64,000 nucleotides of DNA from the NCBI GenBank assembly GCA_958429225.1, contig CAUAJB010000001.1, positions 8,955-72,954 on the forward strand, in the 5' to 3' direction. The translations under genes and the position numbers were made by a program. Below, one piece after another: positions 22,278 through 60,854 of this stretch. Each line of letters starts with the position of its first letter. The stretch's first letter is position 1. The notes beneath the pieces were generated by a model. That model had not been told where the DNA came from, ran no database searches, and saw nothing but the letters and a program-made list of their open reading frames with translations. Source of the DNA: an uncultured Collinsella sp. Lineage in GTDB: Bacteria > Actinomycetota > Coriobacteriia > Coriobacteriales > Coriobacteriaceae.

Positions 22278-22287
22278 TATCCCTCCC

Positions 22288-22360
22288 ATAAGTTGCGGTG
22301 AAATAGGGACTGTTTAAACGATTCAACTCCAAATTCAGTCCCTATTTCACCACAACTTAT
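22288..22360. repeat. Palindromic repeat element, family C, copy 1
   Basis: 25-nt arms ATAAGTTGCGGTGAAATAGGGACTG / CAGTCCCTATTTCACCACAACTTAT (1 mismatch) flank a 23-nt loop. The arm is shared with the element at 53494-53560. Confidence 0.8.
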
Positions 22361-22463
22361 AAAAGGGCATAGAGGGGGCTAACTATCGAGTCTTTGTCGC
22401 GAACAGTTCATCAGCCAGAATTCCGTTCGCACGATATTACTTTGGACCGACTGAGTTTCCGCA

Positions 22464-22615
22464 GCCTGCTCGCCCACAGGGGCCCGTGCGCGGCCTGTGA
22501 GATTTATCGCGAGTTCCGCACGAGCCGAAGAGCACTTAATGTGCTCTTCGTGCGAGCAGGACTGTAGAGCAGGAAATCTCACAGGCCGCGCACGGGCCCC
22601 TGTGGGCGAGCAGGC
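22464..22615 (+). repeat. Structured repeat element, family A/B, copy 1 (42-bp perfect inverted arms + 68-nt conserved core)
   Basis: Arms 22464-22505 and 22574-22615 are perfectly complementary. Core 22506-22573 equals the reverse complement of 60667-60735, apart from 3 compensated base pairs and 1 indel. Confidence 0.9.
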
Positions 22616-22752
22616 GGACGACAAACACATCTGTCCAATAATTCGTCTGAAACATAATGAAAAACCGTTTGATGTGAGTTAATATAAACAACGTCGTGAA
22701 TCTGACTCCTGCCACATGCATGACAGGGGTTAAACACAAAAAGGAGTCAATT

Positions 22753-23016
22753 ATGGTTTCTGAGAAGGCTACCCTCGTTAATCCTCAGGGTCTGCACATG
22801 CGTCCGGCTGGTCTGTTTGCCTCCACCATGGGCAAGTACGCCTGTGACGTGACGGTCGTCACCCCCGAGAAGGAGGTCAACGGTAAGTCCCCGATGGCCC
22901 TCATGGCTGCTGGTATCCCCTGCGGCACCGAGGTCGAGGTCAAGTGCGACGGCGCTGACGAGGCCGAGGCTCTGGCTGCTGCCATCGAGCTCATCAAGAG
23001 CGGTCTTGGCGAGTAG
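22753..23016 (+). CDS. ptsH: Phosphocarrier protein HPr
   Basis: ATG 22753 follows RBS AAGGAG (22741-22746). The active-site His context GLHMRPA and regulatory Ser context NGKSPMALM are present. Length is 87 aa. Confidence 0.9.
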   Translation: MVSEKATLVNPQGLHMRPAGLFASTMGKYACDVTVVTPEKEVNGKSPMALMAAGIPCGTEVEVKCDGADEAEALAAAIELIKSGLGE

Positions 23017-28699: not shown

Positions 28700-28776
28700 G
28701 GCCCGTTCGTCTAGCGGTTTAGGACGCCGCCCTCTCAAGGCGGAGATCACCAGTTCGAATCTGGTACGGGCTACCA
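28700..28776 (+). tRNA. tRNA-Glu (anticodon CUC), CCA encoded
   Basis: A cloverleaf folds by hand: acceptor GGCCCGT/ACGGGCT, D stem GTCT/GGAC, anticodon stem CCGCC/GGCGG with loop CTCTCAA, and T arm ACCAG-TTCGAAT-CTGGT, followed by the discriminator A and CCA. Confidence 0.9.
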
Positions 28777-28798: not shown

Positions 28799-28875
28799 GG
28801 CCCGTTCGTCTAGCGGTTTAGGACGCCGCCCTCTCAAGGCGGAGATCACCAGTTCGAATCTGGTACGGGCTACCA
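28799..28875 (+). tRNA. tRNA-Glu (anticodon CUC), identical second copy
   Basis: The 77 nt are identical to 28700-28776, separated from it by a 22-nt spacer. Confidence 0.9.
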
Positions 28876-31173: not shown

Positions 31174-32490
31174 TTATCCTTCCCACTCCAAATGGGAATC
31201 CTCCGATGCGTCTTCGCACGCTTGCATGACCTCGATACCATGCGAGCGTGCGAACTCGACGAGCTCTGCGTTGCGGGCGTTTATGGTGCCGAAGGCGGCG
31301 GGGCACACGATAAGGCGCGCGCAGTGGACGAGGAGCTCTTTGGCGCGGGCTATGGTTTTATCCCCGATCGGCTCGAAGGCGCGCTCGGCCACGCATTCCG
31401 TCGCCAGGTCGCGCGCGAGCTCGCAGTCGATGTCCCCTTCGTGCAGAACGCCCGCGTAGAATGCCTTGCCCTGCCGGATGAGCTGGCGAAACACAGCCGA
31501 CCCCGTACCTGCGCCGGCGATGACGAACGTGTGCGCATCGCCGTGCGGGCGCCCAATTTCCACGCTGCCGAAGCGCTCGTTGAAGGTGCCATGTTGAAGG
31601 CCGTAGAGCTTGCCAATCGTCTCGCGCGTGAATATGTCCTCGGGTGCGCCGGCGCGGAAGACCCGGCCGTCCTTCACGCAAATCACCTTGTCGGCGCTTT
31701 TCTGCGCGAGCTCGAGTTCGTGGATGGACATGATGACAGCCACATTCCGCGATTTCGCAAGGTGGCGAAGTATCCGCAGCAGGTCGATCTGGTAGCGGAT
31801 ATCGAGATACGACGTGGGCTCGTCGAGCACGAGCACGCGCGGATCCTGCGCGATGGCGCGTGCGAGCATGACGCGCTGGCGTTGCCCGTCGCTTATCTGC
31901 ATGAAGTCGCGCTCGGCGAGCTCTTCCACACGTGCGGTTTTCATGGCTTCATCGACCCGACTATGGTCGTCGGGCGAGAGTGTGCCCATTCGCCCGGTGT
32001 AGGGATGCCTTCCCGCCTCCACGATATCGCGGCAGGTGAGGAGCTCGGTCCGGGGGCGATCTGTCAGCATAACGGCAAGGTTCCTTGCGAACTCCGCCGT
32101 CTTCCATCGGGAAATCTCTCGCCCGTCGAGCTCGACCGCGCCGGCAAGCGGTGTCAGATGGCGTGTGATGGTTTTCAAGATGGTCGACTTGCCCGAGCCG
32201 TTCGGCCCGATGAGCGCCACGACGTCGCCCGCGCGAACCTTCAGGTCGACGCCTTCGACTACGACCTTCTTGTCGTAGCCCGCCGACAGGTCGCTTATGC
32301 GGAAAAGCGGCGCTCCGTCAGCCTGCGTTTCGACCGGGGTTTCGAGGTTCGGCTCCGCTCGGAGGAGGCGTTCCGCGCGCAGTTCCGCACGAGCCGAAAG
32401 TGCCTTCTGGCGCTTTCGTGCGAGCTCAGGACTGGCCAAGCATGGAATGTTCCCTCCGAGCGTTTTGGTCCGCGGCACGAATTCCCCCAT
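31174..32490 (-). CDS. ABC importer ATP-binding protein (FecE/BtuD-like) with N- and C-terminal extensions
   Basis: Walker A GPNGSGKST, signature SDGQRQR and Walker B LVLDEPT are present. The ATG directly abuts the permease stop (TAGATG). About 140 additional C-terminal residues follow the ABC domain. Confidence 0.85.
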   Translation of the reverse strand: MGEFVPRTKTLGGNIPCLASPELARKRQKALSARAELRAERLLRAEPNLETPVETQADGAPLFRISDLSAGYDKKVVVEGVDLKVRAGDVVALIGPNGSGKSTILKTITRHLTPLAGAVELDGREISRWKTAEFARNLAVMLTDRPRTELLTCRDIVEAGRHPYTGRMGTLSPDDHSRVDEAMKTARVEELAERDFMQISDGQRQRVMLARAIAQDPRVLVLDEPTSYLDIRYQIDLLRILRHLAKSRNVAVIMSIHELELAQKSADKVICVKDGRVFRAGAPEDIFTRETIGKLYGLQHGTFNERFGSVEIGRPHGDAHTFVIAGAGTGSAVFRQLIRQGKAFYAGVLHEGDIDCELARDLATECVAERAFEPIGDKTIARAKELLVHCARLIVCPAAFGTINARNAELVEFARSHGIEVMQACEDASEDSHLEWEG

Positions 32491-35789: not shown

Positions 35790-36716
35790 TTACAGCTTGG
35801 CGATGGCGTCGTCCACGTGCGAGACGTAGATGTCGTCGACCGCGACGTTCTGTCCCAGACCCTGGAGCAGGCACGTCACTTCGAAGCCGGCGGCCACGAA
35901 CTTCGCAGCCCAGCTGTCGGGGTCGGTCTCGTCTGCCATGTCGTTGTTCGCGTGGTCGCCCGCGACCACCATGAACGGCGCGAGCACGGCCTTCTTGTAG
36001 CCTGCGGCGCTCGCGGCGGCGATAACATCCTCGCAGGTCGGTTCAGCCTCGACGGTGCCGACGAAGAACTGCGTCAAGCCCTCGTTCTTAAACACTTCCT
36101 GCATCTTGGCATAGTCGGCGTTGGAATCGGCTTCGGTGCCGTGGCCCATGAGGCACAGCGCCGTCTTGCCGTCGTCGAAGGACGCCATGTTCTCCTTAAT
36201 GGCTGCGGCCACCTTCTTGTAGTCGTCGTCGGAGGTGAGCAGCGGGTCGCCGAGCGAGATCTTATCGAACTTGTCGGCGTACTTGTCGAGCTCGTCTTTC
36301 ACGTCGGTGTATTCCAGGCCGCCCATGAGATGCGTCGGCTGCACGACGATTTCCTTCACGCCGTCTTCCACGCAGCGGTCGAGCGCCTCGGTCATGTTGT
36401 CGATCGTGATACCGTCGCGCTTCTTCAGCTTGTCGATGATGATCTGCGCGGTGAAGGCGCGGCGGATGTCGTAGTCCTGCCAGTACTTCTCGCGGATAGC
36501 GTCTTCGATGGCGCCGATGGTGATGTGGCGCGAGTCGTTGTAGCTCGTGCCGAAGCTCGTGACGAGGATGACCGGCTTCACGGCCTTCTCCTTTTCACTC
36601 GATTTCTCGGAACTCGTGGAGGTGTTGGAGCAGCCCGCGAGCGCGACTCCGGCGAGCGCGACGGCTCCGGTTGCTGCGGCGCCCATGAAGCCGCGGCGTG
36701 ACATCTGGTCGGACAT
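35790..36716 (-). CDS. cbiK: Sirohydrochlorin cobaltochelatase CbiK-like protein with Tat signal and lipobox
   Basis: Start is ATG 36716. The N-terminus has twin-arginine SRRGFMGAAA and lipobox LAGC. CbiK-family motifs SFGTSY, RAFT, MGHG and VAGDHANNDMA are present. Confidence 0.8.
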   Translation of the reverse strand: MSDQMSRRGFMGAAATGAVALAGVALAGCSNTSTSSEKSSEKEKAVKPVILVTSFGTSYNDSRHITIGAIEDAIREKYWQDYDIRRAFTAQIIIDKLKKRDGITIDNMTEALDRCVEDGVKEIVVQPTHLMGGLEYTDVKDELDKYADKFDKISLGDPLLTSDDDYKKVAAAIKENMASFDDGKTALCLMGHGTEADSNADYAKMQEVFKNEGLTQFFVGTVEAEPTCEDVIAAASAAGYKKAVLAPFMVVAGDHANNDMADETDPDSWAAKFVAAGFEVTCLLQGLGQNVAVDDIYVSHVDDAIAKL

Positions 36717-36729
36717 GGTTTTTCCTTTC

Positions 36730-36965
36730 CTCGGTTTGCCGGTCCCCCGGCGACAGTTGCTTGTCGGCACAAGCGAAAGAAAAGCGCACCCCTCGGGGTT
36801 CACAAGGAGCTAACGCCACGGCGATGCCGTGAGGAAAAGGCGAAGCAGTCTGGCTTGGGGCGCGAGGCGGTTCGCCCGCGCGTCCTATACAGTAATGTCC
36901 CTTGCCCAGGATTCCCACCTGGTTCCCTCCGCAAGCCAGCGCGGGCTGTGCGGGCGCCGCGCCGG
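36730..36965 (-). promoter_or_regulatory. Cobalamin riboswitch (leader of the cbiK-like/ABC importer operon)
   Basis: The minus strand reads GGAGGGAACCAGGUGGGAAUCCUGG...ACUGUA. This core is closed by helix GCCCGCGC/GCGCGGGC and followed by a B12-box-like AAGCCAGACUGC. A CCUUUUCCUC segment is complementary to the SD GAGGAAAGG. Confidence 0.7.
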
Positions 36966-37174
36966 TCATTTCCTTTTATCCGATTGTCATATGCTCGTTG
37001 CCGAAACTTTTACTATGATAGTGGGCACTTGTGAACGTGTCAAAGCCAGGGCGGGCGGCATTGCGCCTCCTGCCTGCGTATTTGCGCCGATTGCCGCCGC
37101 AGGCGCCGTGTTTTGTCCGCTGCGCGAATGGCGGCGTAAACGGTTGCGATGAGAAACGGGAAGGGAAGGCTCGG

Positions 37175-37966
37175 ATGATTCATATCGTTGGCGCAGGCTC
37201 GGGCGCCGCCGACCTTATCACGCTGCGCGGGGCGCGCCTTCTGCGCGCGGCCGACGTGGTCGTTTGGGCGGGGAGCCTTGTGAACCCCGAGCTGCTCGCC
37301 GAGTGCAAGGAATCCTGCGTCGTCTACGACAGCGCGCACATGACCTTGGAGGAAGTGCTCGACGTGATGTGCGCGGCGGATGCACGGGGCGAGGAAGTGG
37401 TGCGCCTGCACACGGGCGACCCGTGCCTGTACGGCGCCATCCAGGAGCAGATGGACGCACTCGACGCGCGCGGCGTGGACTACGAGGTGGTGCCCGGCGT
37501 GTCGAGCTTTTGCGGTGCCGCGGCGGCGCTTCGCCAGGAATACACGCTGCCGGGAATCAGCCAGTCGGTCGTGATCACGCGGCTTTCCGGGCGCACCCCC
37601 ATGCCCGCGGGCGAGGGCATGCGCACCATGGCGGAAAGCGGCTCGACTATGGTCATCTTCTTGAGCTCGGGTATGCTCGCCGAGCTTTCCGCCGAGCTTT
37701 TGGCCGCGGGCCGCAGCTCCGACGAGCCGGCGGCGCTCGTGTACAAGGCGACCTGGCCTGAGGAGCGCGTGGTGCGCTGCACAGTGGGCACGCTCGCCGA
37801 TGCGGGTGCGCGAGAGGGCATCGACCGCACGGCGCTCGTGGTGGTGGGCCGCGTGCTCGGAGCTCGCGGTGGGCTTGCGCACGACGGCGCGCAAGCGGAG
37901 TCGTACGAGCGCAGCAAGCTTTACGACCCTTCGTTTGCCACGGGGTATCGGAAGGCGAGCAGCTAG
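37175..37966 (+). CDS. cbiF: Cobalt-precorrin-4 C11-methyltransferase
   Basis: Start is ATG 37175 (MIHIVGAGSGAADLITLRG). It has the TP-methylase fold, with HTGDPCLYGA. Confidence 0.9.
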   Translation: MIHIVGAGSGAADLITLRGARLLRAADVVVWAGSLVNPELLAECKESCVVYDSAHMTLEEVLDVMCAADARGEEVVRLHTGDPCLYGAIQEQMDALDARGVDYEVVPGVSSFCGAAAALRQEYTLPGISQSVVITRLSGRTPMPAGEGMRTMAESGSTMVIFLSSGMLAELSAELLAAGRSSDEPAALVYKATWPEERVVRCTVGTLADAGAREGIDRTALVVVGRVLGARGGLAHDGAQAESYERSKLYDPSFATGYRKASS

Positions 37967-37967
37967 C

Positions 37968-39152
37968 GTGGCCTTCGAGCACTACATATATACCGGGACG
38001 ACCCGCCTGCGCTGCGGCTATACCACGGGGAGCTGCGCCACGCTCGCGGCGAAGGCGGCCTGCGAGATGCTCTTGTCACGAAAGCCCGTCGGCCACGTGT
38101 CGATCGTCACCCCCGGCGGGCTGCCCGTCGAGACGGACGTGGTCGATGCATGCATCGGCGAGGGGTGCGCCCAGTGCGCCGTGCAAAAGGACGCAGGCGA
38201 CGACGCCGATGTGACCGACGGCGTGCTCGTGTACGCGCGCGTGGAACATGCGGGGTCGGGCACGGGCGCTGCGGGCAGCAAGGGCGTGCCCACGCGCGAA
38301 TCGGAAGTTTCCGTCGATGGCGGCGTGGGCGTGGGGCGCGTGACGTTGCCCGGGCTCGAGCAGCCAGTGGGGGCGGCCGCCATCAACGCGACGCCGCGCG
38401 CGATGATCACTTCGGCGGTGCGCGAGGTGTGCGCCGCGCACGGCTTTTCTGGAAATATTGCTGTGACGATTTCGGTACCCGAGGGTGTTGCCCTTGCCGA
38501 AAAGACCTTCAACCCGCACCTGGGGATAGAGGGCGGCATCTCCATCCTGGGCACGACGGGCATCGTCGAGCCGCGCAGCCTCGCTGCCTTGCGCGACAGC
38601 ATCGAGCTCGAGATCCGGCAGCATGCGGCTATGGGGCGGCGCGGAGTCGTGCTCACGCCCGGCAACTACGGCGAGCAGTTCATCTCGGGGCATTTTCACC
38701 TAAACGGAGCGCCGGTGGTCTTCATCTCCAACTTTGTGGGCGATGCGATTGATTGCTGCGTTCGCGAGGGATTTACCAATGTCCTTCTTGTGGGACACAT
38801 CGGCAAGCTGGTGAAGGTCGCTGGCGGCATCATGGACACCCATTCGCGTACCGCCGACTGCCGCGCGGAGATTCTGGCCGCCCACGCGGCCTTGGCCGGC
38901 GCGGGCGCGAAGACCGTGCGCGAGATCATGTCTTCGGTCACGACCACGGCGGCGCTCGAGGTAATCGAGGCCGCCGGCGTGGGGGACGCTGCGCGCGCCT
39001 CGCTCGCTGCGGCAACCGAGGACAGGTTGCGCCGCCGCGCGGCGGGCGCATGCGATATCGCCGCGGTCGTGTTCGACGCCGGGCGCCGCGAGCTTTTCCG
39101 TACGTCGGGCGCCGATGCAGTTATCGGGGAATTGGGGGTGACGTATGAGTAA
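37968..39152 (+). CDS. cbiD: Cobalt-precorrin-5B C1-methyltransferase
   Basis: The GTG start lies 1 nt after the cbiF stop. The CbiD signature GYTTGSCATLAAKAA is present. Confidence 0.9.
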   Translation: MAFEHYIYTGTTRLRCGYTTGSCATLAAKAACEMLLSRKPVGHVSIVTPGGLPVETDVVDACIGEGCAQCAVQKDAGDDADVTDGVLVYARVEHAGSGTGAAGSKGVPTRESEVSVDGGVGVGRVTLPGLEQPVGAAAINATPRAMITSAVREVCAAHGFSGNIAVTISVPEGVALAEKTFNPHLGIEGGISILGTTGIVEPRSLAALRDSIELEIRQHAAMGRRGVVLTPGNYGEQFISGHFHLNGAPVVFISNFVGDAIDCCVREGFTNVLLVGHIGKLVKVAGGIMDTHSRTADCRAEILAAHAALAGAGAKTVREIMSSVTTTAALEVIEAAGVGDAARASLAAATEDRLRRRAAGACDIAAVVFDAGRRELFRTSGADAVIGELGVTYE

Positions 39153-39834
39153 AGGCGTGCTGTACGGGGTGGGAACGGGGCCTGGCGACCCCGAGCTGCT
39201 CACGATCAAGGCCGTCCGCACAATCGAATCGTGTCCGGTCATCGCCGCGCCGCAGACGGCGGACGGGGCCATGGTCGCGCTCGATATCGTGCGCGGCGCC
39301 GTCGACCTTACAGGCAAGACGGTGATCCCCGTGCGGTTCTCGATGACGCGCGACGCCGAGCGCCGCGCGGCCGAGCATGCCTCGCTTGTTCGCGAGCTTG
39401 TCGCGCACCTGGATGCGGCCCGCGACGTCGCGCTGCTGAACCTGGGGGACCCGAGCATCTACGCCACCTTCCAGCGCATAGCGCCCGACGTGCGCGCCCG
39501 CGGGTTCGAGGCGCGTGCCATTCCCGGCGTGCCGAGCTTCTGCGCGGTCGCCGCGGCGCTCGAGCGCGACCTCACGCCCGAGATGTCGTCGCCTCTGCAT
39601 ATCGTGCCCGGCGGCTACGACGACGTGCGCCGCGCAATCGGCTGGCCGGGGACGAAGGTGATCATGAAGGCGCGCCGTTCGCTTGCGGACACGAAGCGCA
39701 TCCTTCGCGAGGAGGGCGCCTTCGACGGTGCCGAGCTCGTAGAGGACTGTGGGCTTCCGGGCGAGCGCGTGTACCGCTCGCTCGACGATGTGCCCGATCG
39801 GGGCAGCTACTTCTCGACGATGGTGGTGCGCTAG
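39145..39834 (+). CDS. cbiL: Cobalt-precorrin-2 C20-methyltransferase
   Basis: N-terminus is LYGVGTGPGDPELLTIKAV. It overlaps cbiD by 8 nt. Confidence 0.9.
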   Translation: MSKGVLYGVGTGPGDPELLTIKAVRTIESCPVIAAPQTADGAMVALDIVRGAVDLTGKTVIPVRFSMTRDAERRAAEHASLVRELVAHLDAARDVALLNLGDPSIYATFQRIAPDVRARGFEARAIPGVPSFCAVAAALERDLTPEMSSPLHIVPGGYDDVRRAIGWPGTKVIMKARRSLADTKRILREEGAFDGAELVEDCGLPGERVYRSLDDVPDRGSYFSTMVVR

Positions 39835-40968
39835 ATGAGGGTTTCCTGCATAGCGTTCACTGAGAGGGGGTATGCGTTGGCGGAGCGCACCGCACGCGCG
39901 CTTTCCGATTGCGCGCAGACAGGTGAAGATGATCCTGGCTGGGACGTTTCCGTTTCACGCGGGTTCGGCGAGGGGAAGGCCGACTTGCGCGCATGGACGG
40001 CGCTCGCGTGGGAAGCGTCGGACGCGCTTCTGTTCGTGGGCGCGGCGGGCATCGCCGTGCGGGCGATCGCGCCGCATGTCGCCTCGAAGGCAACCGATTC
40101 CGCGGTTGTGGCGATCGACGAGGCGGGGCGCTTTGCCGTCCCGCTTTTGTCGGGGCATTTGGGCGGCGCGAACGAGCTTGCGCAAACTGTGGCACGCGCG
40201 GCAGGGGCCATCCCCGTCATCACCACGGCGACCGACGTCCGCGGCGTGTGGGCGGTGGATACGTGGGCGCGCCGTGCGGGTCTCGCCGTTTCGAATCCCG
40301 AAGCCATCAAGCGAGTGTCGGCGCGGCTGCTTTCGGGCGGGCGCGTGGCGCTCTATTCCGACATGCCGATTTCGGGACAGCCGCCTAAGGGGGTTGACAT
40401 TGCGTCAAACCGCGCTCGGGCCGATATCGTCGTGTCGCCGTTCGCTGGCGCGAATGCAGGTGCGTCCGTTCGCGCGGCGGAGACAACGGGCGAGGTCGTG
40501 CCCGCCGGTGAGACGGGGAAGCCGGCGGGCGTGCGGGCGCAGGCGCCTGCGCCCGAGCCGCTTTGCCTTGTCGTGCCCTGCATCGTTGCGGGCATAGGGT
40601 GCCGTCGCGGTGCGTGCGCCGAAGCGATTGGGGAGGCGTTTCTTCTCGCGTGCGGGCAGGCGGGCATCTCGCCTTCGGCCGTGCGCGAGGCGGCGACGAT
40701 CGACGTGAAGGCGCACGAGGAGGGTCTGCTCGCCTTCTGCCGCGCGCGCAATATCCCGCTTGCGACGTATTCCGCAGAGGAGTTGTCGCAGGTCGAAGGC
40801 AGCGTTTCGCCATCTGATTTCGTGCGCGCGACGGTGGGGGTCGACAACGTGTGCGAGCGCGCGGCGCTCGCGGACGGGGGCAAACTTATCTTCCCAAAGC
40901 TCGCTCACGGCGGCGTGACCGTCGCGTTTTCCAAGGTAACTATCGAACTTTCGTTTAAGGAGCGGTGA
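39835..40968 (+). CDS. cbiG: Cobalt-precorrin-5A hydrolase
   Basis: CbiG N-, middle and C-terminal regions are recognisable (VAGIGCRRG ... IDVKAHEEGL). Confidence 0.85.
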   Translation: MRVSCIAFTERGYALAERTARALSDCAQTGEDDPGWDVSVSRGFGEGKADLRAWTALAWEASDALLFVGAAGIAVRAIAPHVASKATDSAVVAIDEAGRFAVPLLSGHLGGANELAQTVARAAGAIPVITTATDVRGVWAVDTWARRAGLAVSNPEAIKRVSARLLSGGRVALYSDMPISGQPPKGVDIASNRARADIVVSPFAGANAGASVRAAETTGEVVPAGETGKPAGVRAQAPAPEPLCLVVPCIVAGIGCRRGACAEAIGEAFLLACGQAGISPSAVREAATIDVKAHEEGLLAFCRARNIPLATYSAEELSQVEGSVSPSDFVRATVGVDNVCERAALADGGKLIFPKLAHGGVTVAFSKVTIELSFKER

Positions 40969-41711
40969 TGGGAAAGCTCTTCGTGGTGGGGATCGGCCCG
41001 GGCGGCCCCGACGGCATGACGATTGCGGCTCGGCGCGCGCTCGAGGCGGCCGACACCGTTGTGGGGTACACGAAATACGTGGAGCTCGCGCTCGCCGCCG
41101 TGCCCGACGTGGCGCATCTCGCGACGCCGATGATGCACGAGGTCGAACGGTGCCGCCTGGCGCTTTCGCGTGCGCAGAGCGGAGAAGCCGTGGCGCTCGT
41201 GTGCAGCGGTGACGCGGGCGTGTACGGCATGGCGAGCCCCGTGCTGGAGCTTGCGGAGGACTACCCCGATGTAGACGTGGAAGTTATCGCCGGGGCCACC
41301 GCGGCTCAAAGCGGGTCGGCGGTGCTCGGCGCCCCGCTTGCCCACGACTTCGCGGTCGTGTCGCTCTCCGACTTGCTCACGCCGTGGGAGGTCATCGAGC
41401 GCAGGCTCGCCGCCGTGGCGATCGCCGACTTCTGCATCTGTTTGTACAACCCGCGCAGCAGAAAGCGCGCCGACAGGCTCTCGCGCGCGGCGAAGATTAT
41501 GCTCGAATGGAAGGCCCCCGACACGCTCTGCGGTTGGGTACGCAACATCGGGCGCGAGGGGCAGCAGTCGGGCATGTGCAGGCTCTCCGAGCTGGGGGAG
41601 CTCGATGCAGACATGTTCACCACCGTGTTCGTCGGCAACGCGGGCACGAAGCGCGTAGGCGGCCGTATGGTCACGCCGCGCGGGTATCGGGAGATTCCAT
41701 GCGAAAGGTAA
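40968..41711 (+). CDS. cbiH: Cobalt-precorrin-3B C17-methyltransferase
   Basis: ATG 40968 lies 5 nt after RBS AAGGAG (a GTG at 40965 is also possible). N-terminus is VVGIGPGGPDGMTIAARRALEAADTVVGYTKY. Confidence 0.9.
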   Translation: MGKLFVVGIGPGGPDGMTIAARRALEAADTVVGYTKYVELALAAVPDVAHLATPMMHEVERCRLALSRAQSGEAVALVCSGDAGVYGMASPVLELAEDYPDVDVEVIAGATAAQSGSAVLGAPLAHDFAVVSLSDLLTPWEVIERRLAAVAIADFCICLYNPRSRKRADRLSRAAKIMLEWKAPDTLCGWVRNIGREGQQSGMCRLSELGELDADMFTTVFVGNAGTKRVGGRMVTPRGYREIPCER

Positions 41712-43048
41712 CGATTATCGGGGCGGGGCCCGGAAACGCCGACTTGCTCTCGCGCGCGGCGCTCGACGCGATCGACATCGCCGACGTGGTCATCGGCGCT
41801 CATCGCGCGCTTGTTGGCATCGACGTGCCGCCCGACGTGGTGAGATGCGAGCTCGTGAAGACGGCGGACATCGTCGCCGCGCTCACCGATGCGGCGTCGT
41901 GGCAGCGCGCCGTGGTCGTGATGACGGGCGATGTGGGGCTGTTCAGCGGCGCGCGCCGCCTGGCGGAGGCAATCTCCGGCGACGCGCAGGTGGACGTGCG
42001 CATCATTCCCGGCATAAGCTCAGCGTCGTATCTCGCCGCGTGCCTCGCGCGTCCATGGCAGGATTGGCGCTTCGCGAGCGCTCACGGCGTGGCGTGCGAC
42101 ATCGTGGCCGAGGCCGAGCGCGCAGGTGAGCTCTTCCTCGTCACGTCGGGCGGGGAAGACCCCTCGCGGCTTTCGGGCGAGCTTGTGCAGGCGGGCTTCG
42201 GGGACGCGCGCGTGACGGTGGCCGAGCGCCTGTCGTACCCCGACGAGCGTATCACCTGCGCGACCGCAAGTGAAATCGCAGGTCAGACGTTCGACGACTT
42301 GAACGTGATGCTTATCGATTTCGCAGGTGGCGCCGGGTCGCCTGCGGGCTCTAGCGCAGCCTCCGAGGCGCCGGCCGGCGCGTCTGCATCCGCGGCGGCT
42401 TCTTCCGCGGCGGACCCTGCGGGCGCATCCCGCGCCGCGAGCTCCCGCTGGCCGTACGCTTCCTCGGGCATTCCCGACGAGCTCTTCATCCGCGGCGAAG
42501 TTCCCATGACCAAGCAGGAGGTGCGCGCCGTCGCGCTCGCGAAGCTGCGCCTTACCGCGACCGACACCGTGTGGGACGTCGGCGCCGGCACGGGGAGCGT
42601 GTCGATCGAGGCGGCGCTCGTCGCGCGAGCGGGCTCGGTATGGGCGGTGGAGCGCAACGCGGCCGGCGTGCGGCTCATCCGAGAGAACGCGGATGCATTC
42701 GGGTGCGGCAACGTGCATGCGGTCCCCGGTGTCGCCCCCGATGCGCTCGCGAAACTGCCCGTCCCCGACGCCGTGTTCGTCGGCGGGAGTGCGTGCGAGC
42801 TTCCCTCCATCGTGGAGGCGGCGCTCGAGAAGAACTCGCAGGTTCGCCTGTGCGTGCCATGCGTCACCGTTGAGACGCTCACCGAGGCGTGCGCGCTCCT
42901 CTCGGGTTCGCGCTTTAAGGGGTTCGAGGCGTGCCAGGTGTCGGCCGCCCGCGCCGAGGCTGTAGGCTCGCACCATCTTATGAAGGCGCAAAACCCCGTG
43001 TTCCTCGTCAGCGCGCGTGGTGCAGGTGGGGAAGGCGGCGCCCGGTGA
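41699..43048 (+). CDS. cbiET: Fused cobalt-precorrin-7 C5-methyltransferase / cobalt-precorrin-6B C15-methyltransferase (decarboxylating)
   Basis: The CbiE part (IIGAGPGNADLLSRAAL) and the CbiT SAM-methyltransferase part (VWDVGAGTGSVSIEAA) are joined by an Ala/Ser/Gly linker. Confidence 0.85.
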   Translation: MRKVTIIGAGPGNADLLSRAALDAIDIADVVIGAHRALVGIDVPPDVVRCELVKTADIVAALTDAASWQRAVVVMTGDVGLFSGARRLAEAISGDAQVDVRIIPGISSASYLAACLARPWQDWRFASAHGVACDIVAEAERAGELFLVTSGGEDPSRLSGELVQAGFGDARVTVAERLSYPDERITCATASEIAGQTFDDLNVMLIDFAGGAGSPAGSSAASEAPAGASASAAASSAADPAGASRAASSRWPYASSGIPDELFIRGEVPMTKQEVRAVALAKLRLTATDTVWDVGAGTGSVSIEAALVARAGSVWAVERNAAGVRLIRENADAFGCGNVHAVPGVAPDALAKLPVPDAVFVGGSACELPSIVEAALEKNSQVRLCVPCVTVETLTEACALLSGSRFKGFEACQVSAARAEAVGSHHLMKAQNPVFLVSARGAGGEGGAR

Positions 43049-44427
43049 GCACGTCCATTCCGCGCTTCATGGTCGCTGCGCCCTCGAGCGGGAGCGGCAA
43101 GACGGTCGTAACGTGCGCGCTCCTGCGCGCGCTCGCGCGCCGCGGCCTTGCATGCGCGGCCTTCAAATGCGGCCCCGACTACATTGACCCGCTCTTTCAT
43201 CGCCGCGTCGTGGGTACGCGCTCGGGCAACTTAGACGGCTTCTTCACCGACGCTCCGACGCTGCGCGCCCTGCTCGCACGCGGCGCCGCGGGCGCGGATG
43301 TCGCGGTGCTCGAGGGGGTCATGGGCTTCTACGACGGCATGGCGCCCGGCGTGGCCGACGCGAGCAGCTACCAGGTTGCGCGCGACACGGAAACGCCGGT
43401 CGTTTTAGTGGTGAACGGGCGCGGGGCGTCTTTATCGCTCGCCGCCGTAATCCGCGGCATCGCCGAGTTCCTGCCTTGTGCGAACGTGCGCGGCGTCGTG
43501 CTGAACAAGACGGGCGCCGCTGCCTGCGCCTACGCGGCGCCTGCGATCGAGAAGCACACGGGCGTCGCGGTTTTGGGTAATATCCCCGCCGACGAGGCGT
43601 TCTCGCTCGAAAGCCGGCATCTGGGGCTTGTGACCGCCGACGAGGTCAAGCAGCTCTCCGCGCGCATCGGCAAGATGGCCGAGCTGGTGGAAAAGAGCGT
43701 CGACGTCGATCGCTTGCTCGAAATAGCGGCGACGGCACCCGATATCCGCGAGGAACCTTACCGGTTGGAGCCGATCGCGGGAGCGCGGCCCATCGTCGCC
43801 GTCGCGCGTGACGAGGCGTTCTCGTTCTACTACGAGGAGAACCTGCGCGCGCTCGAGGACCTGGGTTGCGAGCTGGCCTTTTTCAGCCCCCTGTGTGATA
43901 GCGAGTTGCCCCGGGGGACAAGCGCCCTCTATCTGGGAGGCGGCTACCCGGAGCTCCATGCGCGGCAGCTCTCCGAGAACGCGCCGATGCGCGAGGCGGT
44001 GCGGCGCGCGGTGGAATCCGGCATGCCGACGGTCGCCGAATGCGGTGGGTTTCTGTACCTGCAGCGCGAAATCGCCGATAGCGAGGGGCGGCGCTGGCCT
44101 GTTGCGGGCGCCCTTGAGGGAGCAAGCGAGAACGGGGGAAGGCTGTCCCATTTCGGGTACGTGGAGCTCACTTCCCAACGCGACGGGCTCTACGGGCCGC
44201 GCGGCACACGCATCCGCGCGCACGAGTTCCACTACTGGCAGTCCACCTGCCCGGGCGGCGACTTCTGGGCGCAGAAGCCCCGGCGCGACAAGGGCTGGCC
44301 GTGCATGACGACCACCCCGTCCCTGGTTGCGGGCTTCCCGCATGTGTACTATCCTGCGAACCCCGACGTTGCGCGCGCGTTCGCGTCTGCCACAGCGTCG
44401 TTCGCAGAGAGGAGACGGCATGGCTGA
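43045..44427 (+). CDS. cbiA: Cobyrinate a,c-diamide synthase
   Basis: The GTG start overlaps the cbiET stop. SGSGKTVVTCALL and FKCGPDYIDP are present, with a GATase-like C-terminal half. Confidence 0.9.
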   Translation: MSTSIPRFMVAAPSSGSGKTVVTCALLRALARRGLACAAFKCGPDYIDPLFHRRVVGTRSGNLDGFFTDAPTLRALLARGAAGADVAVLEGVMGFYDGMAPGVADASSYQVARDTETPVVLVVNGRGASLSLAAVIRGIAEFLPCANVRGVVLNKTGAAACAYAAPAIEKHTGVAVLGNIPADEAFSLESRHLGLVTADEVKQLSARIGKMAELVEKSVDVDRLLEIAATAPDIREEPYRLEPIAGARPIVAVARDEAFSFYYEENLRALEDLGCELAFFSPLCDSELPRGTSALYLGGGYPELHARQLSENAPMREAVRRAVESGMPTVAECGGFLYLQREIADSEGRRWPVAGALEGASENGGRLSHFGYVELTSQRDGLYGPRGTRIRAHEFHYWQSTCPGGDFWAQKPRRDKGWPCMTTTPSLVAGFPHVYYPANPDVARAFASATASFAERRRHG

Positions 44428-45562
44428 AGCAACCGAAACCGCGCTTGCCTGCATCCGTGAGGAAGTCGAGCGCGCGTTCTCGTCGGCGCCGGGTGCCGTG
44501 CTCGAAGCCGCGCTCTCCCGGATCGCGCCCGCAGACGAGTGCGCCCGCGCCGCCGCGTACGCCGCGTGGGACTCTATCGCGCACCCCTTGGGGGGATTGG
44601 GCGACTTTGAAGACGCCGTCGCGTGTATCGCCGCAGCTCAGGGGAGCGCCGAGGTGGCCGAGTTTCCCCGTGCACTCGCGGTATTCTTCTCCGACAACGG
44701 GGTCGTTGCCGAAGGCGTGTCGCAAAGCGGGCAAGACGTGACGCGAGCCGTCGCGCGCAACATGTGCGAGGGGGCCACGAGCGCCTGCCGCATGGCGGCG
44801 TTCGCGGGTGCCGAGGTCGTGCCCGTCGACGTGGGTATGGCCCGGGGCATAGAAGACACGCGCATGGTGCGCGCGAACGTGCGGCGGGGGAGCGGCAACA
44901 TCGCGCACGGCTCCGCTATGTCTCGCGATGGGGCCGTTCGCGCGATCGAGGTCGGAATTGCCGTCGCGTGCGGACTTGCCCGCGCCGGCGTGCGCCTTTT
45001 CGCCGCGGGCGAGATGGGCATCGGCAACACGACCACCTCGGCGGCGGTGGCCGCAGTGCTCATCCGGGCGGACGCGCGGAGCCTCGTCGGGCGCGGCGCG
45101 GGGCTCTCGGACGCCTCGCTCGCGCGCAAGCGCGACGTGGTCGAGCGCGCTATCGACGCGAACTCGCCCGATCCCGCCGACCCGATCGACGTGCTCTCGA
45201 AGGTCGGCGGCTTCGACATCGCGGCGATGTGCGGCTTCTACCTGGGGGCCGCGGCCTCGAAGGCGCCGGCGCTCCTCGACGGGGTCATATCATGCACGGC
45301 GGCCCTGTGCGCGGCGCGCCTGTGCCCTAACGCCTTGGGCTACCTCGTGGGCACCCACGTATCAAGCGAACCGGCAAGCCAGGAGCTCCTTCGCGAGCTC
45401 GGCATAAAGGCACCCCTCGACGCAGGCATGCACTTGGGCGAGGGCGCGGGCGCCATGGCGTATCTGCCCCTTCTGGATTCGGCGCTGCGCGTGTACCGGG
45501 ATGGGAAGACGTTCACGGCGACTGGCATGGCTGCTTACGAGCATTTCGAGGCCGGGAAATGA
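44420..45562 (+). CDS. cobT: Nicotinate-nucleotide--dimethylbenzimidazole phosphoribosyltransferase
   Basis: Motifs GEMGIGNTTTSAAV and LGEGAGA are present. Confidence 0.9.
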   Translation: MAEATETALACIREEVERAFSSAPGAVLEAALSRIAPADECARAAAYAAWDSIAHPLGGLGDFEDAVACIAAAQGSAEVAEFPRALAVFFSDNGVVAEGVSQSGQDVTRAVARNMCEGATSACRMAAFAGAEVVPVDVGMARGIEDTRMVRANVRRGSGNIAHGSAMSRDGAVRAIEVGIAVACGLARAGVRLFAAGEMGIGNTTTSAAVAAVLIRADARSLVGRGAGLSDASLARKRDVVERAIDANSPDPADPIDVLSKVGGFDIAAMCGFYLGAAASKAPALLDGVISCTAALCAARLCPNALGYLVGTHVSSEPASQELLRELGIKAPLDAGMHLGEGAGAMAYLPLLDSALRVYRDGKTFTATGMAAYEHFEAGK

Positions 45563-46107
45563 CGGTGACGCTCGTCATCGGCGCCGCCGCGAGCGGCAAG
45601 AGCGCCTACGCCGAGTCCCTGTGCCTTGGGCACGACGGCCCCCGCGTGTACCTGGCAACGATGGAGCCCTTCGGGGAAGAGGGCGCCCGCCGCATCGCGC
45701 GCCATCGGGCGCTGCGCGAGGGCAAGGGGTTTTCCACCCTCGAGCGCACGCGTGACGTGGGCGCCGCAGTGCCCGGGCTTCCGCGCGGCTGCACGCTTCT
45801 TTTGGAGGACGTGGGCAACCTGGTTGCGAACGAGCTCTTCGCGGAAGGCGGCTTGTCCCCACTTGACCCCGACGCTGCGGCGCGCGAGGTGCTCGGAGGC
45901 ATCGAACGGCTCGCTCAGGCCGCTGAGTATACGGTGGTGGTCACCGTCGACGTGTTCGCCGATGGGATGCGCTACGATGAGGGGACCGAGGCATGGAGGC
46001 GCGCGCTCGCGCGCGTGAACGCGGGCGTGGCGGCGTTGGCCGACCGCGCAGTCGAAGTGGTATGCGGGATTCCCGTGTGGATGAAAGGCGAAGGACCTAC
46101 AAGGTGA
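45559..46107 (+). CDS. cobU: Adenosylcobinamide kinase / adenosylcobinamide-phosphate guanylyltransferase
   Basis: P-loop GAAASGKS is present, along with a His-containing region RRIARHRALR. Confidence 0.85.
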   Translation: MTVTLVIGAAASGKSAYAESLCLGHDGPRVYLATMEPFGEEGARRIARHRALREGKGFSTLERTRDVGAAVPGLPRGCTLLLEDVGNLVANELFAEGGLSPLDPDAAAREVLGGIERLAQAAEYTVVVTVDVFADGMRYDEGTEAWRRALARVNAGVAALADRAVEVVCGIPVWMKGEGPTR

Positions 46108-46871
46108 AGATAGCAGAGGCAATCGGCGCGGCGTTCGGAACGTTCTCGCGCATCCCCGTCCCGAAATCGGCCTGGACCGATTTCGGATCAACCCATGCGC
46201 TTGCCGCGTTTCCCCTGGTGGGCGTTGCGGAAGGCTTCCTCATGACGGCGTGGGGGCACGTGGCGAACCTGCTCGGCGTGCCCGCGACCATCGTCGCGGC
46301 CGTGCTCGTGGCGTTGCCTGTGGCGGTGACGGGAGGCATTCACCTAGACGGGCTCTGCGACACCTCCGATGCGCTTGCAAGTTGGGCCCCGCGCGAGCGA
46401 AAGCTCGAGATCATGCACGACCCGCGGGCGGGCGCCTTTGGGGTCATTGGTGTTGTTGTGTACCTTATTCTGCAGTTTTCCCTTTTCACCGCGCTGCCGC
46501 TTACGGCGGGGGTGTTCCTCGCGCTTCTGTGCTCGCTCGTGTTCTCCCGCGCGCTTTCGGGGCTTGCCGTTGAATGCTGGCCTGCCGCGCGGGCTGACGG
46601 CATGGCCGCGGGGCTCTCGCCTGCGAAGAAGCGCGCGGCGATCGTCGTGCCGCTTTGCGCTTTCGCTGCGGCTTCGGCTGCAGGGATGGTCGCGTGCGCT
46701 CAGGCCGTCGGCGCCCTTATGGCGGTGGCGGGGCTTTTGGTGCTCGCGTGGTACCGCCATGTTGCCCTGTCCCGCTTCGGTGGGGTGACGGGGGATTTGG
46801 CCGGATGGTTTCTGCAATGGGCCGAGCTCGCGATGCTTGCCATGCTAGTGGCGGGGGGCATGCTCCTATGA
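46104..46871 (+). CDS. cobS: Adenosylcobinamide-GDP ribazoletransferase (cobalamin synthase)
   Basis: The GTG start overlaps the cobU stop. It is a polytopic membrane protein carrying FSRIPVP and GGIHLDGLCDTSDA. Confidence 0.85.
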   Translation: MKIAEAIGAAFGTFSRIPVPKSAWTDFGSTHALAAFPLVGVAEGFLMTAWGHVANLLGVPATIVAAVLVALPVAVTGGIHLDGLCDTSDALASWAPRERKLEIMHDPRAGAFGVIGVVVYLILQFSLFTALPLTAGVFLALLCSLVFSRALSGLAVECWPAARADGMAAGLSPAKKRAAIVVPLCAFAAASAAGMVACAQAVGALMAVAGLLVLAWYRHVALSRFGGVTGDLAGWFLQWAELAMLAMLVAGGMLL

Positions 46872-47869
46872 TGCTCGTGGTAGGTGGCGCACATTCGGGG
46901 AAGAGGACCTTCGTGCGCGAAAAGCTCGGGTTCGCGGCGGACGATTTCGTCGACGCGGCGCAGCTTGCGGAGGGCGGCGTGCCCGCTGCTTTTGTCGGCC
47001 GCGTCGCATACCGTGCTGAGGAACTCGTACGCGCGCTCGACGCTGACCGGGCGCTCGAGCGGCTGATCGGCTTCGACGCAGTGATTCTGCCCTTGGTCGG
47101 CTCGGGGGTCGTCCCCATGCGTGCGGAAGACGCCCAATGGCGCGAGCGCGCGGGGCGCCTGGGATGCGCGCTCGCTGCGCGCGCCGACGTCGTCGTGCGC
47201 ATGACGTGCGGGATTCCCCAGGTCATCAAAGGAAACCTTGCCGATGCGCCTCGAGGGACGCAGGGCGCGGGCGCGCCTTTGGAAGTCGTCTTCGTGCGCC
47301 ATGGTGCCACGGCGGGCACGGAAGACCATCGCTACAGCGGGGCGGGCACCGACGAACCCCTGTCGTGCGCTGGCGAGCGCGCTTTGCGCGACCTCGCGTG
47401 CGATCGTGACGCGTTCCGTGTTTTCACGAGCGGCATGGCCCGCACCGACCAGACGGCACGCATCCTTTTCCCGAATGCGGAGCTTATGGCATGCCCCGGT
47501 CTGCGCGAGATGGATTTCGGTGACTTCGAGGGGCGAAGCGCCGCCGAGCTTAAAGAGGATGCGCGCTACCGCGCCTGGGTAGACTCCTGGTGCGAGACGT
47601 GCTGCCCGCATGGCGAGGGCAAGAGCGATTTCACCCGCCGCGTCGTCGCGGCGTTTCGGGAGGCGTGCGAATCGGAGCGCGCCCAGGGGAGTGGGCGCGC
47701 CGTCTTCGTCGTTCACGCGGGTACCGTGAAAGCGCTGCTTTCCGAGCTTGCTGTCCCGAAAATGGAATACTTCGACGTGCATACCGAGCCGGGCGGCGCA
47801 TGGGCCGCCACCTGGGATGGGCGCTGCCTTCGCGACGTTCGCCCCGCTTCGGGGGGCGATGCCCGGTGA
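46868..47869 (+). CDS. cobC: Fusion of a truncated CobU-like P-loop domain with a histidine-phosphatase (alpha-ribazole phosphatase CobC-like) domain
   Basis: The N-terminal part has GGAHSGKR and a CobU-like C-terminal segment GSGVVPM...RMTCGIPQVIKG. The C-terminal part has the RHG motif (FVRHGAT) and GMARTDQTA. Confidence 0.7.
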   Translation: MMLVVGGAHSGKRTFVREKLGFAADDFVDAAQLAEGGVPAAFVGRVAYRAEELVRALDADRALERLIGFDAVILPLVGSGVVPMRAEDAQWRERAGRLGCALAARADVVVRMTCGIPQVIKGNLADAPRGTQGAGAPLEVVFVRHGATAGTEDHRYSGAGTDEPLSCAGERALRDLACDRDAFRVFTSGMARTDQTARILFPNAELMACPGLREMDFGDFEGRSAAELKEDARYRAWVDSWCETCCPHGEGKSDFTRRVVAAFREACESERAQGSGRAVFVVHAGTVKALLSELAVPKMEYFDVHTEPGGAWAATWDGRCLRDVRPASGGDAR

Positions 47870-48843
47870 TGACGATTCTTGCCGTCGCCGCCGGGTTCGC
47901 GGCCGACCTTGCCTTCGGCGACCCGCGCTGGCTTCCCCATCCCGTTGTCGCCATGGGGCGCGCGATCACGTGGGCCGAAGGCCGCCTGCGGGGCTCATTC
48001 CCGCAAACGTCCGCGGGCACGCGCGCCGCAGGGCTCGTGCTTGCCGTGGCGCTTCCGCTTGCGTGTGGGCTTTTGACCTTGGGAATCCTGCATCTTTGCG
48101 GCATGGTTCACCCCGGCTTGCGCTTCGTGGCCGAGGCATGGGCGAGCTATCAGATTCTCGCGGCATGCGAGCTGCGCCGCCAGAGCCTGGCCGTGGCCCG
48201 CGCGTTCTCGAAGGGCGGCCTTGTCGCGGCTCGCGAAGCCGTCGGGCTCATCGTGGGACGCGACACGTCTGTTCTCGACGAGCAGGGCGTTGCGCGCGCC
48301 GCCGTGGAAACGGTGGCGGAGAACGCGAGCGACGGCGTCATCGCGCCGCTTTTCTACCTTATGATCGGGGGTGCGCCCTTGGGCATGGCGTACAAGGCGG
48401 TGAACACGCTCGACAGCATGGTGGGCTACAAAAACGAGCGCTACATCGACTTCGGCTGCGCCTCGGCGCGCCTCGACGATGCGGTGAACTGGATTCCCTC
48501 GCGCTTATCGGCCCTGCTCATGATCGCCGTGTGCCCGATTGTCGGGCTCGATGCTCGCGGGGCGGCGCGCATCTGGCGCCGCGACAGGCGTCGCCATGCG
48601 AGCCCCAACTCGGCGCAGACCGAGTCAGCGTGTGCGGGCGCGCTCGGGCTGCGCCTGGCAGGACCCGCGGTGTATTTCGGCAAGCTCGTTGAGAAACCGA
48701 CGATAGGCGACGCGTCCCGCGAAATCGAGTGGGGCGACATCGCCCGGGCGACTAGGCTCATGCTCGCCGCGTCCGTATGCGCGCTCGTCGTCTTCGGTGC
48801 CGCACGCGCGGCGGTCGTGCTCGCCGTGGGGGCGATGGTATGA
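47869..48843 (+). CDS. cbiB: Adenosylcobinamide-phosphate synthase
   Basis: The ATG overlaps the upstream TGA by 1 nt. Motifs FGDPRWLPHPVVAMG and NASDGVIAPLF are present. Confidence 0.9.
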   Translation: MTILAVAAGFAADLAFGDPRWLPHPVVAMGRAITWAEGRLRGSFPQTSAGTRAAGLVLAVALPLACGLLTLGILHLCGMVHPGLRFVAEAWASYQILAACELRRQSLAVARAFSKGGLVAAREAVGLIVGRDTSVLDEQGVARAAVETVAENASDGVIAPLFYLMIGGAPLGMAYKAVNTLDSMVGYKNERYIDFGCASARLDDAVNWIPSRLSALLMIAVCPIVGLDARGAARIWRRDRRRHASPNSAQTESACAGALGLRLAGPAVYFGKLVEKPTIGDASREIEWGDIARATRLMLAASVCALVVFGAARAAVVLAVGAMV

Positions 48844-53464: not shown

Positions 53465-53493
53465 GCGCTCGCCGCGCCTAGGGCCCTTCAATC

Positions 53494-53560
53494 AGTTGCG
53501 GTGAAATAGTGTCTGTTTTTGCTGCTAGATAGCATATTCGGTTCCTAATTCACCGCAACT
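53494..53560. repeat. Palindromic repeat element, family C, copy 2 (degenerate)
   Basis: Arms AGTTGCGGTGAAATAG / CTAATTCACCGCAACT have 1 mismatch. The left arm and following bases match copy 1 (AGTTGCGGTGAAATAG.G.CTGTTT). Confidence 0.7.
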
Positions 53561-53573
53561 TTTTGGTGGTGAC

Positions 53574-60617: not shown

Positions 60618-60640
60618 GGGTGCTCCTTCTCTATCCCGTC

Positions 60641-60761
60641 GTTCCGAGGGCTTTGGTATTTGGTCGCCTGCTCTACAGTCCTGGCTCGCACGGAGGCCAC
60701 ATTAAGTGGCCTCCGGCTCGTGCGGAACTCGCGATCGACCAAATACCAAAGCCCTCGGAAC
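60641..60761 (-). repeat. Structured repeat element, family A/B, copy 2 (26-bp perfect inverted arms + 69-nt conserved core, inverted relative to copy 1)
   Basis: Arms 60641-60666 and 60736-60761 are perfectly complementary. The reverse complement of core 60667-60735 matches 22506-22573. Confidence 0.9.
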
Positions 60762-60854
60762 TTAGGATACATGGTAGAGGCGCTCATGCTGCAAAATCCA
60801 TCAGCTGGAGACCTATTCTGTGCTCCATGTCGACTCATCTTCACCACTGGATTA

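Follow-up and report, generated by a model that had tools for sequence, protein, structure and literature searches.

A hairpin repeat family of Collinsella with a conserved, invertible centre and variable complementary arms

Several families of short palindromic repeats have been described in bacteria. The ERIC (IRU), Correia (NEMIS), RUP and BOX sequences are intergenic hairpin repeats of about 100-170 bp, co-transcribed with their neighbours and subject to insertion polymorphism, and orientation-dependent effects on mRNA have been reported for ERIC and Correia elements. The REP sequences of E. coli often lie just after stop codons. Miniature inverted-repeat transposable elements (MITEs) are recognized by terminal inverted repeats conserved across copies, by target-site duplications of fixed length and by a related autonomous insertion sequence that shares their ends. 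Invertons, exemplified by the flagellar switch of Clostridioides difficile and the promoter invertons of Bacteroides, are segments typically of 150-750 bp, and the correction of quasipalindromes by template switching, like inverted-repeat-mediated rearrangement, is a replication-based, RecA-independent process. REPINs are REP doublets that fold into hairpins and are mobilized by RAYT tyrosine transposases; compensatory changes within these hairpins are common, and excision is asymmetric, leaving part of the right end behind (PMC3116915). Here we analyse a palindromic element first noticed, from the letters alone (the sequence-only reading), at two places in a 64,000-nt stretch of an uncultured Collinsella sp. 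(contig CAUAJB010000001.1; "the window" denotes this whole stretch). The closest known system is the REPIN, although the conserved ends that define REPINs and MITEs are here reversed, the centre being conserved and the ends variable. We consider it more probable than any alternative, at about 0.6, that the element belongs to a Collinsella-wide, mobile (or at least duplicative), non-coding and non-autonomous family of hairpin repeats of the REP/REPIN/MITE kind, built inside-out. Three properties most likely characterize it: arms that evolve in concert at the DNA level, a conserved and invertible centre, and a placement filtered by effects on neighbouring transcripts.

The two copies from which the analysis started are the same element, as proposed. 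The blocks shared by their cores each occur exactly twice in the window, the 21-nt 5' block against about 0.03 occurrences expected by chance and the 16-nt 3' block against about 0.02. Arms of 42 nt in copy 1 and of 26 nt in copy 2 are separated by 68 and 69 nt, respectively, and are 100% complementary within each copy; the longer arm includes a small hairpin of its own (CACAGG..CCTGTG). The central hairpins, GAAGAGCAC-TTAAT-GTGCTCTTC and GGAGGCCAC-TTAAT-GTGGCCTCC, are distinguished by three base pairs in which both partners are changed, the TTAAT loop being kept, and the core of copy 2 has one C more than that of copy 1, after GTGCGAGC. All of these details agree with the sequence-only reading. 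Its further statement, that arms are unrelated between copies, holds for this pair, which is unalignable (with the core as anchor, 8 of 26 bases agree), but not for the family, in which arms are weakly related (36% identity on average, versus 29% expected from composition) and are inherited with the core. The predicted fold of the 201-nt copy 1 region has an energy of -143.8 kcal/mol (z = -15 versus shuffles). A third, older copy was recovered by an inverted-repeat scan with similar spacing and a relaxed motif search; its core lies 28 nt past the stop codon of a permease gene, within an ABC-transporter operon.

The further copies that the initial proposal called for are abundant. A pattern scan with one genome per species gave at least 119 loci among the matches listed, nearly all from Collinsella or Coriobacteriaceae and from gut genomes; an Eggerthellaceae metagenome-assembled genome (MAG) and Rubneribacter have one diverged copy each among those matches. 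Together with the window, the listed loci hold 133 strict copies and, by nhmmer, 18 divergent ones. The density is three copies per 64 kb in the window and six in 200 kb of annotated chromosomal sequence from C. aerofaciens TSDC17.2-1.1, or about one copy per 20-35 kb in Collinsella, which extrapolates to roughly 70-110 copies per genome. The repeat unit spans about 130-190 bp, in which a centre of 63-69 nt, comprising three short helices and a CAC-TTAAT-GTG apex, is flanked by inverted repeats of 20-45 bp, often with an extra, decayed outer layer. Compensation of changes in the apical stem extends beyond the founding pair: in 30 family members compared with RNAalifold, four of nine pairs are changed on both sides and none is broken, and at least seven compensated versions occur across the family. 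The 5' and 3' internal loops of the core are each found in several sequence types, a 10-nt segment below the apical stem keeps a 5-bp helix in three registers, and one change between core-segment types (X2 to X3) is a C-G to T-A double change. These variants are combined mosaically across loci, which implies exchange between copies.

The family is apparently undescribed and belongs to no named family. Rfam 15 at gathering thresholds detected two tRNAs only in the whole window, and a permissive scan of 22350-22760 (E up to 10) returned noise, the best score being 19.5 bits against a gathering score of 72.6. An already described RNA family, which the first reading wished to see excluded, was thus not found, whether Collinsella-1 or other motifs from gut bacteria and Actinobacteria. 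Literature searches found no description of the repeat sequence, of palindromic repeats or invertons in Collinsella, or of MITEs in Coriobacteriia, and the sequence is absent from the 200 searchable files among the 408 supplementary files of a gut structured-RNA catalogue. The repeat had no phage match. Carriage on plasmids or viruses was considered and rejected: the sole "plasmid" match, NZ_OY725717.1 (900 kb, "plasmid 6" in PLSDB), is the chromosome piece of TSDC17.2-1.1 used above for the density, and the three element-bearing "viral" contigs from IMG/VR (L151-L153) are host DNA or the host flanks of a prophage. Mislabelling also affects L045, Collinsella DNA that had been binned as Methanobrevibacter smithii.

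With REP and REPIN sequences the Collinsella repeat shares its short, non-coding and intergenic character, a copy number of tens to hundreds, vertical persistence and a long hairpin. Compensatory hairpin changes are common to it and to REPINs, and two alleles described below (L147 and the relic in L105) recall the part of the right end that REPIN excision leaves. Whereas the ends of REPINs (REP 16-mers) are invariant and the spacer varies, the centre of this repeat is invariant and asymmetric and its arms vary; it has no GTAG-type motif; no RAYT gene was found in 1.2 Mb, where an approximate query barely tests the point; and inversion of the centre has not been described for REPINs. The repeat is MITE-like in being small, non-coding, multi-copy and polymorphic for presence, and unlike MITEs in its unconserved ends, untidy junctions and want of a known parent element. 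That a conserved asymmetric centre between variable complementary arms is the reverse of the MITE or REPIN plan was seen from two copies and holds family-wide. The same reading was correct to separate the element from attC sites and simple terminators. In attC sites the end boxes (R''/L'' and L'/R') are conserved, the centre is variable and extrahelical bases are present, whereas here the ends vary, the centre is conserved and the arms are perfect. No T-tract follows the arms on either strand and the loop measures 68 nt, so that the element does not have the form of an intrinsic terminator.

Among 46 distinct arm alleles, Watson-Crick pairing over the first 25 arm positions amounts to 93%, versus 37% with shuffled partners, and all four pair types occur at nearly every position; in RNAalifold comparisons 12 of 12 arm pairs tested had changed on both sides. 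Pairing is best beside the core and decays outwards. In ten genomes with the same allele class at the copy-1 locus, the core is identical (nucleotide diversity, pi, 0.000), while the two arms (pi 0.083 and 0.090) are about as variable as the right flank (pi 0.072), which places their evolution at the neutral intergenic rate. Six of the 14 variable arm positions nevertheless carry the same polymorphism on both arms, against a chance expectation of a few percent of sites. At the copy-2 locus, other genomes contain two arm alleles that differ at 8 of 26 positions, every difference being compensated. Mismatches of the G.T and A.C types are about equally frequent, both in antisense copies within 3' untranslated regions (UTRs; 10 versus 9) and in sense copies (12 versus 13), and about 40% of arm mismatches are of transversion type. 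RNA-level selection on the arms was therefore rejected: neither strand is enriched in G.U, even if copies of different transcription context are considered separately. The absence of wobble bias, and compensation too fast for independent mutations, argue that arm complementarity is maintained at the DNA level. These patterns suggest a strand-symmetric process that would homogenize the arms, either arm-to-arm gene conversion or quasipalindrome template switching. Template switching would account for arms that are perfect yet drifting, for the gradient of perfection towards the loop, for the lack of wobble bias and for occasional inversion of the spacer; being a mutational process and not an element family, it leaves the conserved core, the dispersal and the orientation rule unexplained. 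The structured RNA named among the original possibilities consequently survives only in part, as compensation in the arms no longer argues for it and points instead to a mechanism acting on DNA.

Comparison of occupied and empty sites indicates that the arms travel with the element. Their inner motifs are semi-conserved (..cataaggtt.., ..ttaagtttg and, in B-type copies, ..ttttcg), their outer portions are G+C-rich, and the outer ends differ from locus to locus. Two pairs of filled and empty sites were identified, one filled in L071 and L113 and empty in L073, L040 and L075, the other filled in L049 and TSDC17.2-1.1 and empty in L078 and L101. In both pairs the inserted segment spans the full arms, and the empty sites contain neither arm sequence nor palindrome; the arms of the newly gained copies are similar to those of a copy about 2.2 kb distant. 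Since the arms are missing from empty sites and are inserted with the element, they belong to the copied unit. For both of these clear insertion events the empty sites rule out the two remaining possibilities of the sequence-only reading, inverted duplication of the target and insertion into the loop of an existing palindrome; a weak version of the latter is kept alive by one allele, L116, which could equally be an excision scar. That allele is also the single empty palindrome (arm against arm, no core) encountered. At the first event 8 nt of target are replaced, with a possible TTGCC duplication, and at the second the junctions are CTAG and CTAC. An ancestral empty site for copy 1 was sought in the distant Collinsella strain zg1085, where the intergenic region is unalignable.

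Three independent loci have common flanks, CCTAA / hairpin / G(A/G/C)CGGGA(T/C): the sdaA-upstream copy (window 60762-60766 and 60630-60640), the valS-upstream copies, and copies downstream of a UvrD-like gene, where the flank provides the stop codon of that gene. Either a target preference or an outer, non-palindromic portion of one subfamily may account for these flanks.

The position and orientation of copies relative to genes are far from random. With genes called by a program based on G+C content at third codon positions (GC3), and checked against the TSDC17.2-1.1 annotation and the open reading frames of L153, all copies with enough flank to judge are intergenic. In one class, comprising 15 independent loci, the element is found 4-46 nt past a stop codon; all 15 turn the right arm (the AGGACTG.. 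side) towards that codon and have a core antisense to the gene (p about 3e-5). In cases where an intrinsic terminator of the gene can be seen, it follows the element, which implies that the mRNA includes the reverse complement of the core. Copy 3 belongs to this class and shares its position and orientation with counterparts in other Collinsella genomes and in the Eggerthellaceae MAG (L015). In a second class, of about ten loci, the element lies between co-directional genes with its core sense to both. Some of these copies sit between the upstream terminator and the next promoter, as copy 1 does before ptsH and others do before rplJ, rpsL, groES and cstA; others occupy the 5' UTR about 20 nt before the start codon, as does copy 2 before sdaA and a copy before valS. 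Convergent gene pairs can hold two opposed copies, and valS has a copy on each side, both with the right arm towards the gene. These arrangements, along with the presence of both orientations within the window, rule out replication direction as the determinant. Insertion in a specific orientation could underlie the rule, but the likelier source is selection, acting on an effect on transcripts that depends on orientation. Except for the canonical metK terminator, no promoter-like or intrinsic-terminator-like site was found in or near copies 1 and 2, and neighbouring genes have canonical terminators of their own.

Inversion of the core is real but rare. Both window loci are occupied in every further genome examined, ten of them taken through the exact HPr protein and ten through MetK. 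At the copy-1 locus at least three allele classes occur, with the outermost arm bases (GCTCGCC) in common and the inner arms and core type differing. At this locus in the complete genome CP024160.1 (L123, 586623-589886), the 67-nt core reads as the exact reverse complement of the L121 core, while its 31-nt arms are those of L121, L125 and L126. No other flip was seen among about 140 orthologous copies, which fall into 20 groups. Other alleles record partial loss. Upstream of valS, L116 (145-186) has an arm-arm hairpin without core, GGGGAGGAATGTAGGCCC-TGGC-GGGCCTACATTCCTCCCC, consisting of the outer 18-bp arms and a 4-nt loop, at the site where L065 and L081 have L116-type arms around a complete core. 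As valS identities are star-like (94-96%), the direction of this change cannot be polarized, and L116 is either an excision scar or an unoccupied hairpin. A deletion allele of the copy-1 locus (L147, 795-845; metagenome contig VOFE01001751.1) retains nothing but 19 nt of the outer right arm, the inner part of that arm having been lost together with the core and the left arm. In L105 and L109 a 20-nt relic of the right arm of one allele adjoins a complete copy of the other, and in L002, L060 and L066 the core is without its apical hairpin. The copy 2 ortholog in L131 (GCA_003437235.1, about 2360-2480) is cut 9 nt into the right arm, and the breakpoint joins it to the arm of another copy and to a different gene (DUF711, reverse strand), while L058 and L076 have left and right arms from different copies or alleles. 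These last three are either recombinants or chimeras of MAG assembly.

Three alternative explanations deserve consideration. That the repeat is a functional, cis-acting structured RNA of untranslated regions, in which the long stem presents a conserved apical domain and mobility is secondary, is a serious competitor, albeit one we think doubtful. In a 3' UTR it would serve as a transcript-end, termination or stability element, while the sense orientation would be permissive or would stabilize 5' ends; a possible route is the loading of Rho on the C-rich, G-poor strand CCUGCUCUACAGUCCUGCUCGCAC. The strength of the orientation rule, with every stop-proximal copy antisense and the 5' UTR copies of sdaA and valS sense, speaks for this explanation, as does the location of stop-proximal copies between stop codon and terminator, where they are transcribed. 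It also accommodates a core that is invariant amid variable flanks (fold z about -3.3), the conservation of copy 3 within its operon in two families, and the few mismatches of the apical hairpin, which are mostly G.T on the core strand. It is harder to reconcile with arms whose mismatches lack wobble bias on either strand and in either context and are compensated too fast for selection on independent mutations, and with copy 3, in which the G.T bias falls on the strand antisense to its operon. Moreover, both strands fold almost equally well, the hairpins have neither T-tract nor promoter-like site, and there was no Rfam match at gathering thresholds, nor any for copy 1 at E up to 10.

Much more remote are two explanations that start from DNA. 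The mobile unit might be only the core with about eight inner bases, which would insert into the apex of existing hairpins (terminators, or scars left by earlier copies) or duplicate its target invertedly, most of the arm sequence being local. Such a unit would fit the coreless L116 hairpin and the single outer right arm in L147, both of which are explained equally well as deletions, the direction of the L116 change being unpolarized. It would also fit the alleles of one locus that share outermost arm bases and differ inside (GCTCGCC at the copy-1 locus, GTCCCC at that of group 10), the constant innermost arm of B-type cores (TTTTCG...CGAAAA), and G+C-rich outer arms that start 4-19 nt past stop codons in the manner of terminator stems. 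What makes this improbable is that full arms were inserted in both filled/empty pairs, into sites with no palindrome or arm, and that the arms of new copies resemble those of a nearby copy. The least probable of the explanations weighed here is a miniature inverton, in which a site-specific recombinase serving the whole genome would flip a phase-variable switch, with the arms as its inverted repeats and the core as a directional signal. Perfect inverted repeats, a correlation of orientation with gene context, a possible orientation-dependent transcript effect and the occurrence of both core orientations between identical arms at the copy-1 locus, in L123 versus L121 only, are indeed inverton-like. 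However, only a single flip was seen among about 140 orthologous copies; the arms are locus-specific, with some 7-10 semi-conserved inner bases and no common recombination site; the annotated or called contexts show no recombinase gene beside a copy, although a master recombinase could lie farther off; promoter-like sites were likewise not found; and, to our knowledge, an invertible segment of 67-69 bp is below the size of every inverton known.

The interpretation as a mobile or duplicative hairpin repeat is itself opposed by several observations. No transposase or recombinase was found beside any copy, and tblastn found no IS200-like Y1 gene in 1.2 Mb, although an approximate IS200 TnpA query makes this a weak test. 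The only gains seen are the two described, each resembling a copy about 2.2 kb away, and neither has a clean target-site duplication; such untidy junctions make repair or template switching as likely a source of new copies as true transposition. The core blocks of copy 3 are kept at the same operon junction in Collinsella and Eggerthellaceae, a conservation that looks more like host-level function than selfish DNA. Orientation is almost fixed over the orthologous copies, so that arm-to-arm recombination would only rarely resolve as inversion. Finally, many loci come from MAGs, and chimeric alleles such as L058 and L076 are possibly assembly artefacts. A parent insertion sequence was also sought: in about 1.2 Mb no partial core match flanked a gene, and a transposon bounded by two cores 2.8 kb apart (L004, L056) was dismissed, the gene between them being valS.

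As a mobile or duplicative repeat, the family could operate as follows. Arm complementarity would be kept by gene conversion or template switching, occasionally resolving as inversion, and the invariant centre would be the part recognized by whatever copies the element, with exchange between copies also helping it stay uniform; a host function is another possible reason for its invariance. By analogy with RAYT/IS200-type systems, the recognizing factor may be an enzyme that binds hairpins and works on single-stranded DNA, and with ends that are not conserved the cuts would have to follow from structure or distance, not from sequence. The orientation rule implies that the effect on the transcript differs between the two orientations. 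The reverse complement of the core in an mRNA 3' UTR would be tolerated or useful at stop codons, while copies upstream of genes and in 5' UTRs are found in the sense orientation; an attractive, if hypothetical, function for the C-rich antisense strand is that of a polar termination or 3'-end signal. A more explicit version, which we regard as unlikely in its entirety, is that of a new class of structure-defined mobile DNA, an "inside-out REPIN", in which a putative enzyme would read the apical core of a single-stranded hairpin and cut by structure, the arms would be carried along and regenerated, and the flippable core would act as a polar transcript-end signal kept one way after stops and the other way before genes.

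Table 1. Parts of the three hairpin copies in the window
Feature	Position	Strand	Remarks
Copy 1, decayed outer extension of left arm	22440..22463	+	imperfect pairing with 22616-22640 in predicted fold
Copy 1, left arm (42 nt)	22464..22505	+	100% complementary to 22574-22615; internal sub-palindrome CACAGG..CCTGTG
Copy 1, asymmetric core (68 nt)	22506..22573	+	5' ATCGCGAGTTCCGCAC, 5-nt bulge GAGCC, apical hairpin, then GTGCGAGC-AGGACTGTAGAGCAGG
Copy 1, apical hairpin P3	22526..22550	+	CGAAGAGCAC-TTAAT-GTGCTCTTCG; 10-bp arms, 5-nt loop
Copy 1, right arm (42 nt)	22574..22615	+	perfect complement of left arm; polymorphism concerted with left arm
Copy 1, decayed outer extension of right arm	22616..22640	+	predicted fold; similar nested decayed palindromes elsewhere
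Copy 3, degenerate left arm (19 nt)	32356..32374	+	79% complementary to 32444-32462
Copy 3, diverged core	~32375-32443	+	AGTTCCGCACGAGCC-GAAAGTGCC-TTCT-GGCGCTTTC-GTGCGAGCTCAGGACTG; antisense to ABC-transporter operon
Copy 3, degenerate right arm (19 nt)	32444..32462	+	imperfect complement of left arm
Copy 2, right arm (26 nt)	60641..60666	-	23 nt from ATG of serine dehydratase gene (59010-60617, minus strand)
Copy 2, core (69 nt)	60667..60735	-	sense to downstream L-serine dehydratase gene
Copy 2, left arm (26 nt, minus-strand reading)	60736..60761	-	directly after -10-like TATCCT upstream of serine dehydratase gene

Other palindromic sequences occur in the window. A second, unrelated family is represented at 22281-22367 and 53489-53565 by GTTGCGGTGAAATAGGGACTG ... 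CAGTCCCTATTTCACC(A/G)CAAC, with arms of 32 and 21 nt. One of its copies lies about 100 nt upstream of copy 1; L121 and L123 lack it in the corresponding intergenic region, which indicates that this family is also polymorphic. Upstream of the glutamyl-tRNA synthetase gene, at 62317-62449, 31-nt inverted arms that are 94% complementary stand 71 nt apart, in a region with three copies of GGGGACAG(A/G)CT(T/A)AAA(T/C)GA at 62328 (+), 62363 (+) and 62421 (-); its architecture is similar to that of the Collinsella hairpin repeat, with another centre, and it has no Rfam match. Two identical tRNA genes (28700-28773 and 28799-28872) are separated by 25 nt. G+C content is 66-69% over 36000-52000 versus about 60% in the remaining window, and the sign of GC skew flips near 32 kb, where gene orientation also switches.

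Collinsella is an abundant genus of the human gut for which almost no non-coding biology has been described. Its genomes would, by extrapolation, each contain some 70-110 of these repeats, placed beside core genes that include rpsL, rplJ, groES, valS, ptsH, sdaA and tsaD and the neighbours of polA; copies are also rearrangement breakpoints and strain-level markers. The "covariation" of their arms appears to stem from a process at the DNA level and not from selection on RNA structure, which calls for caution in covariation-based discovery of RNAs in metagenomes. The family offers a tractable case for the persistence of interspersed repeats in small genomes, as its inside-out design, invertible centre and strict orientation rule make two questions testable: how the ends of mobile hairpins are defined, and whether such repeats have been domesticated as polar 3'-end or insulator elements.

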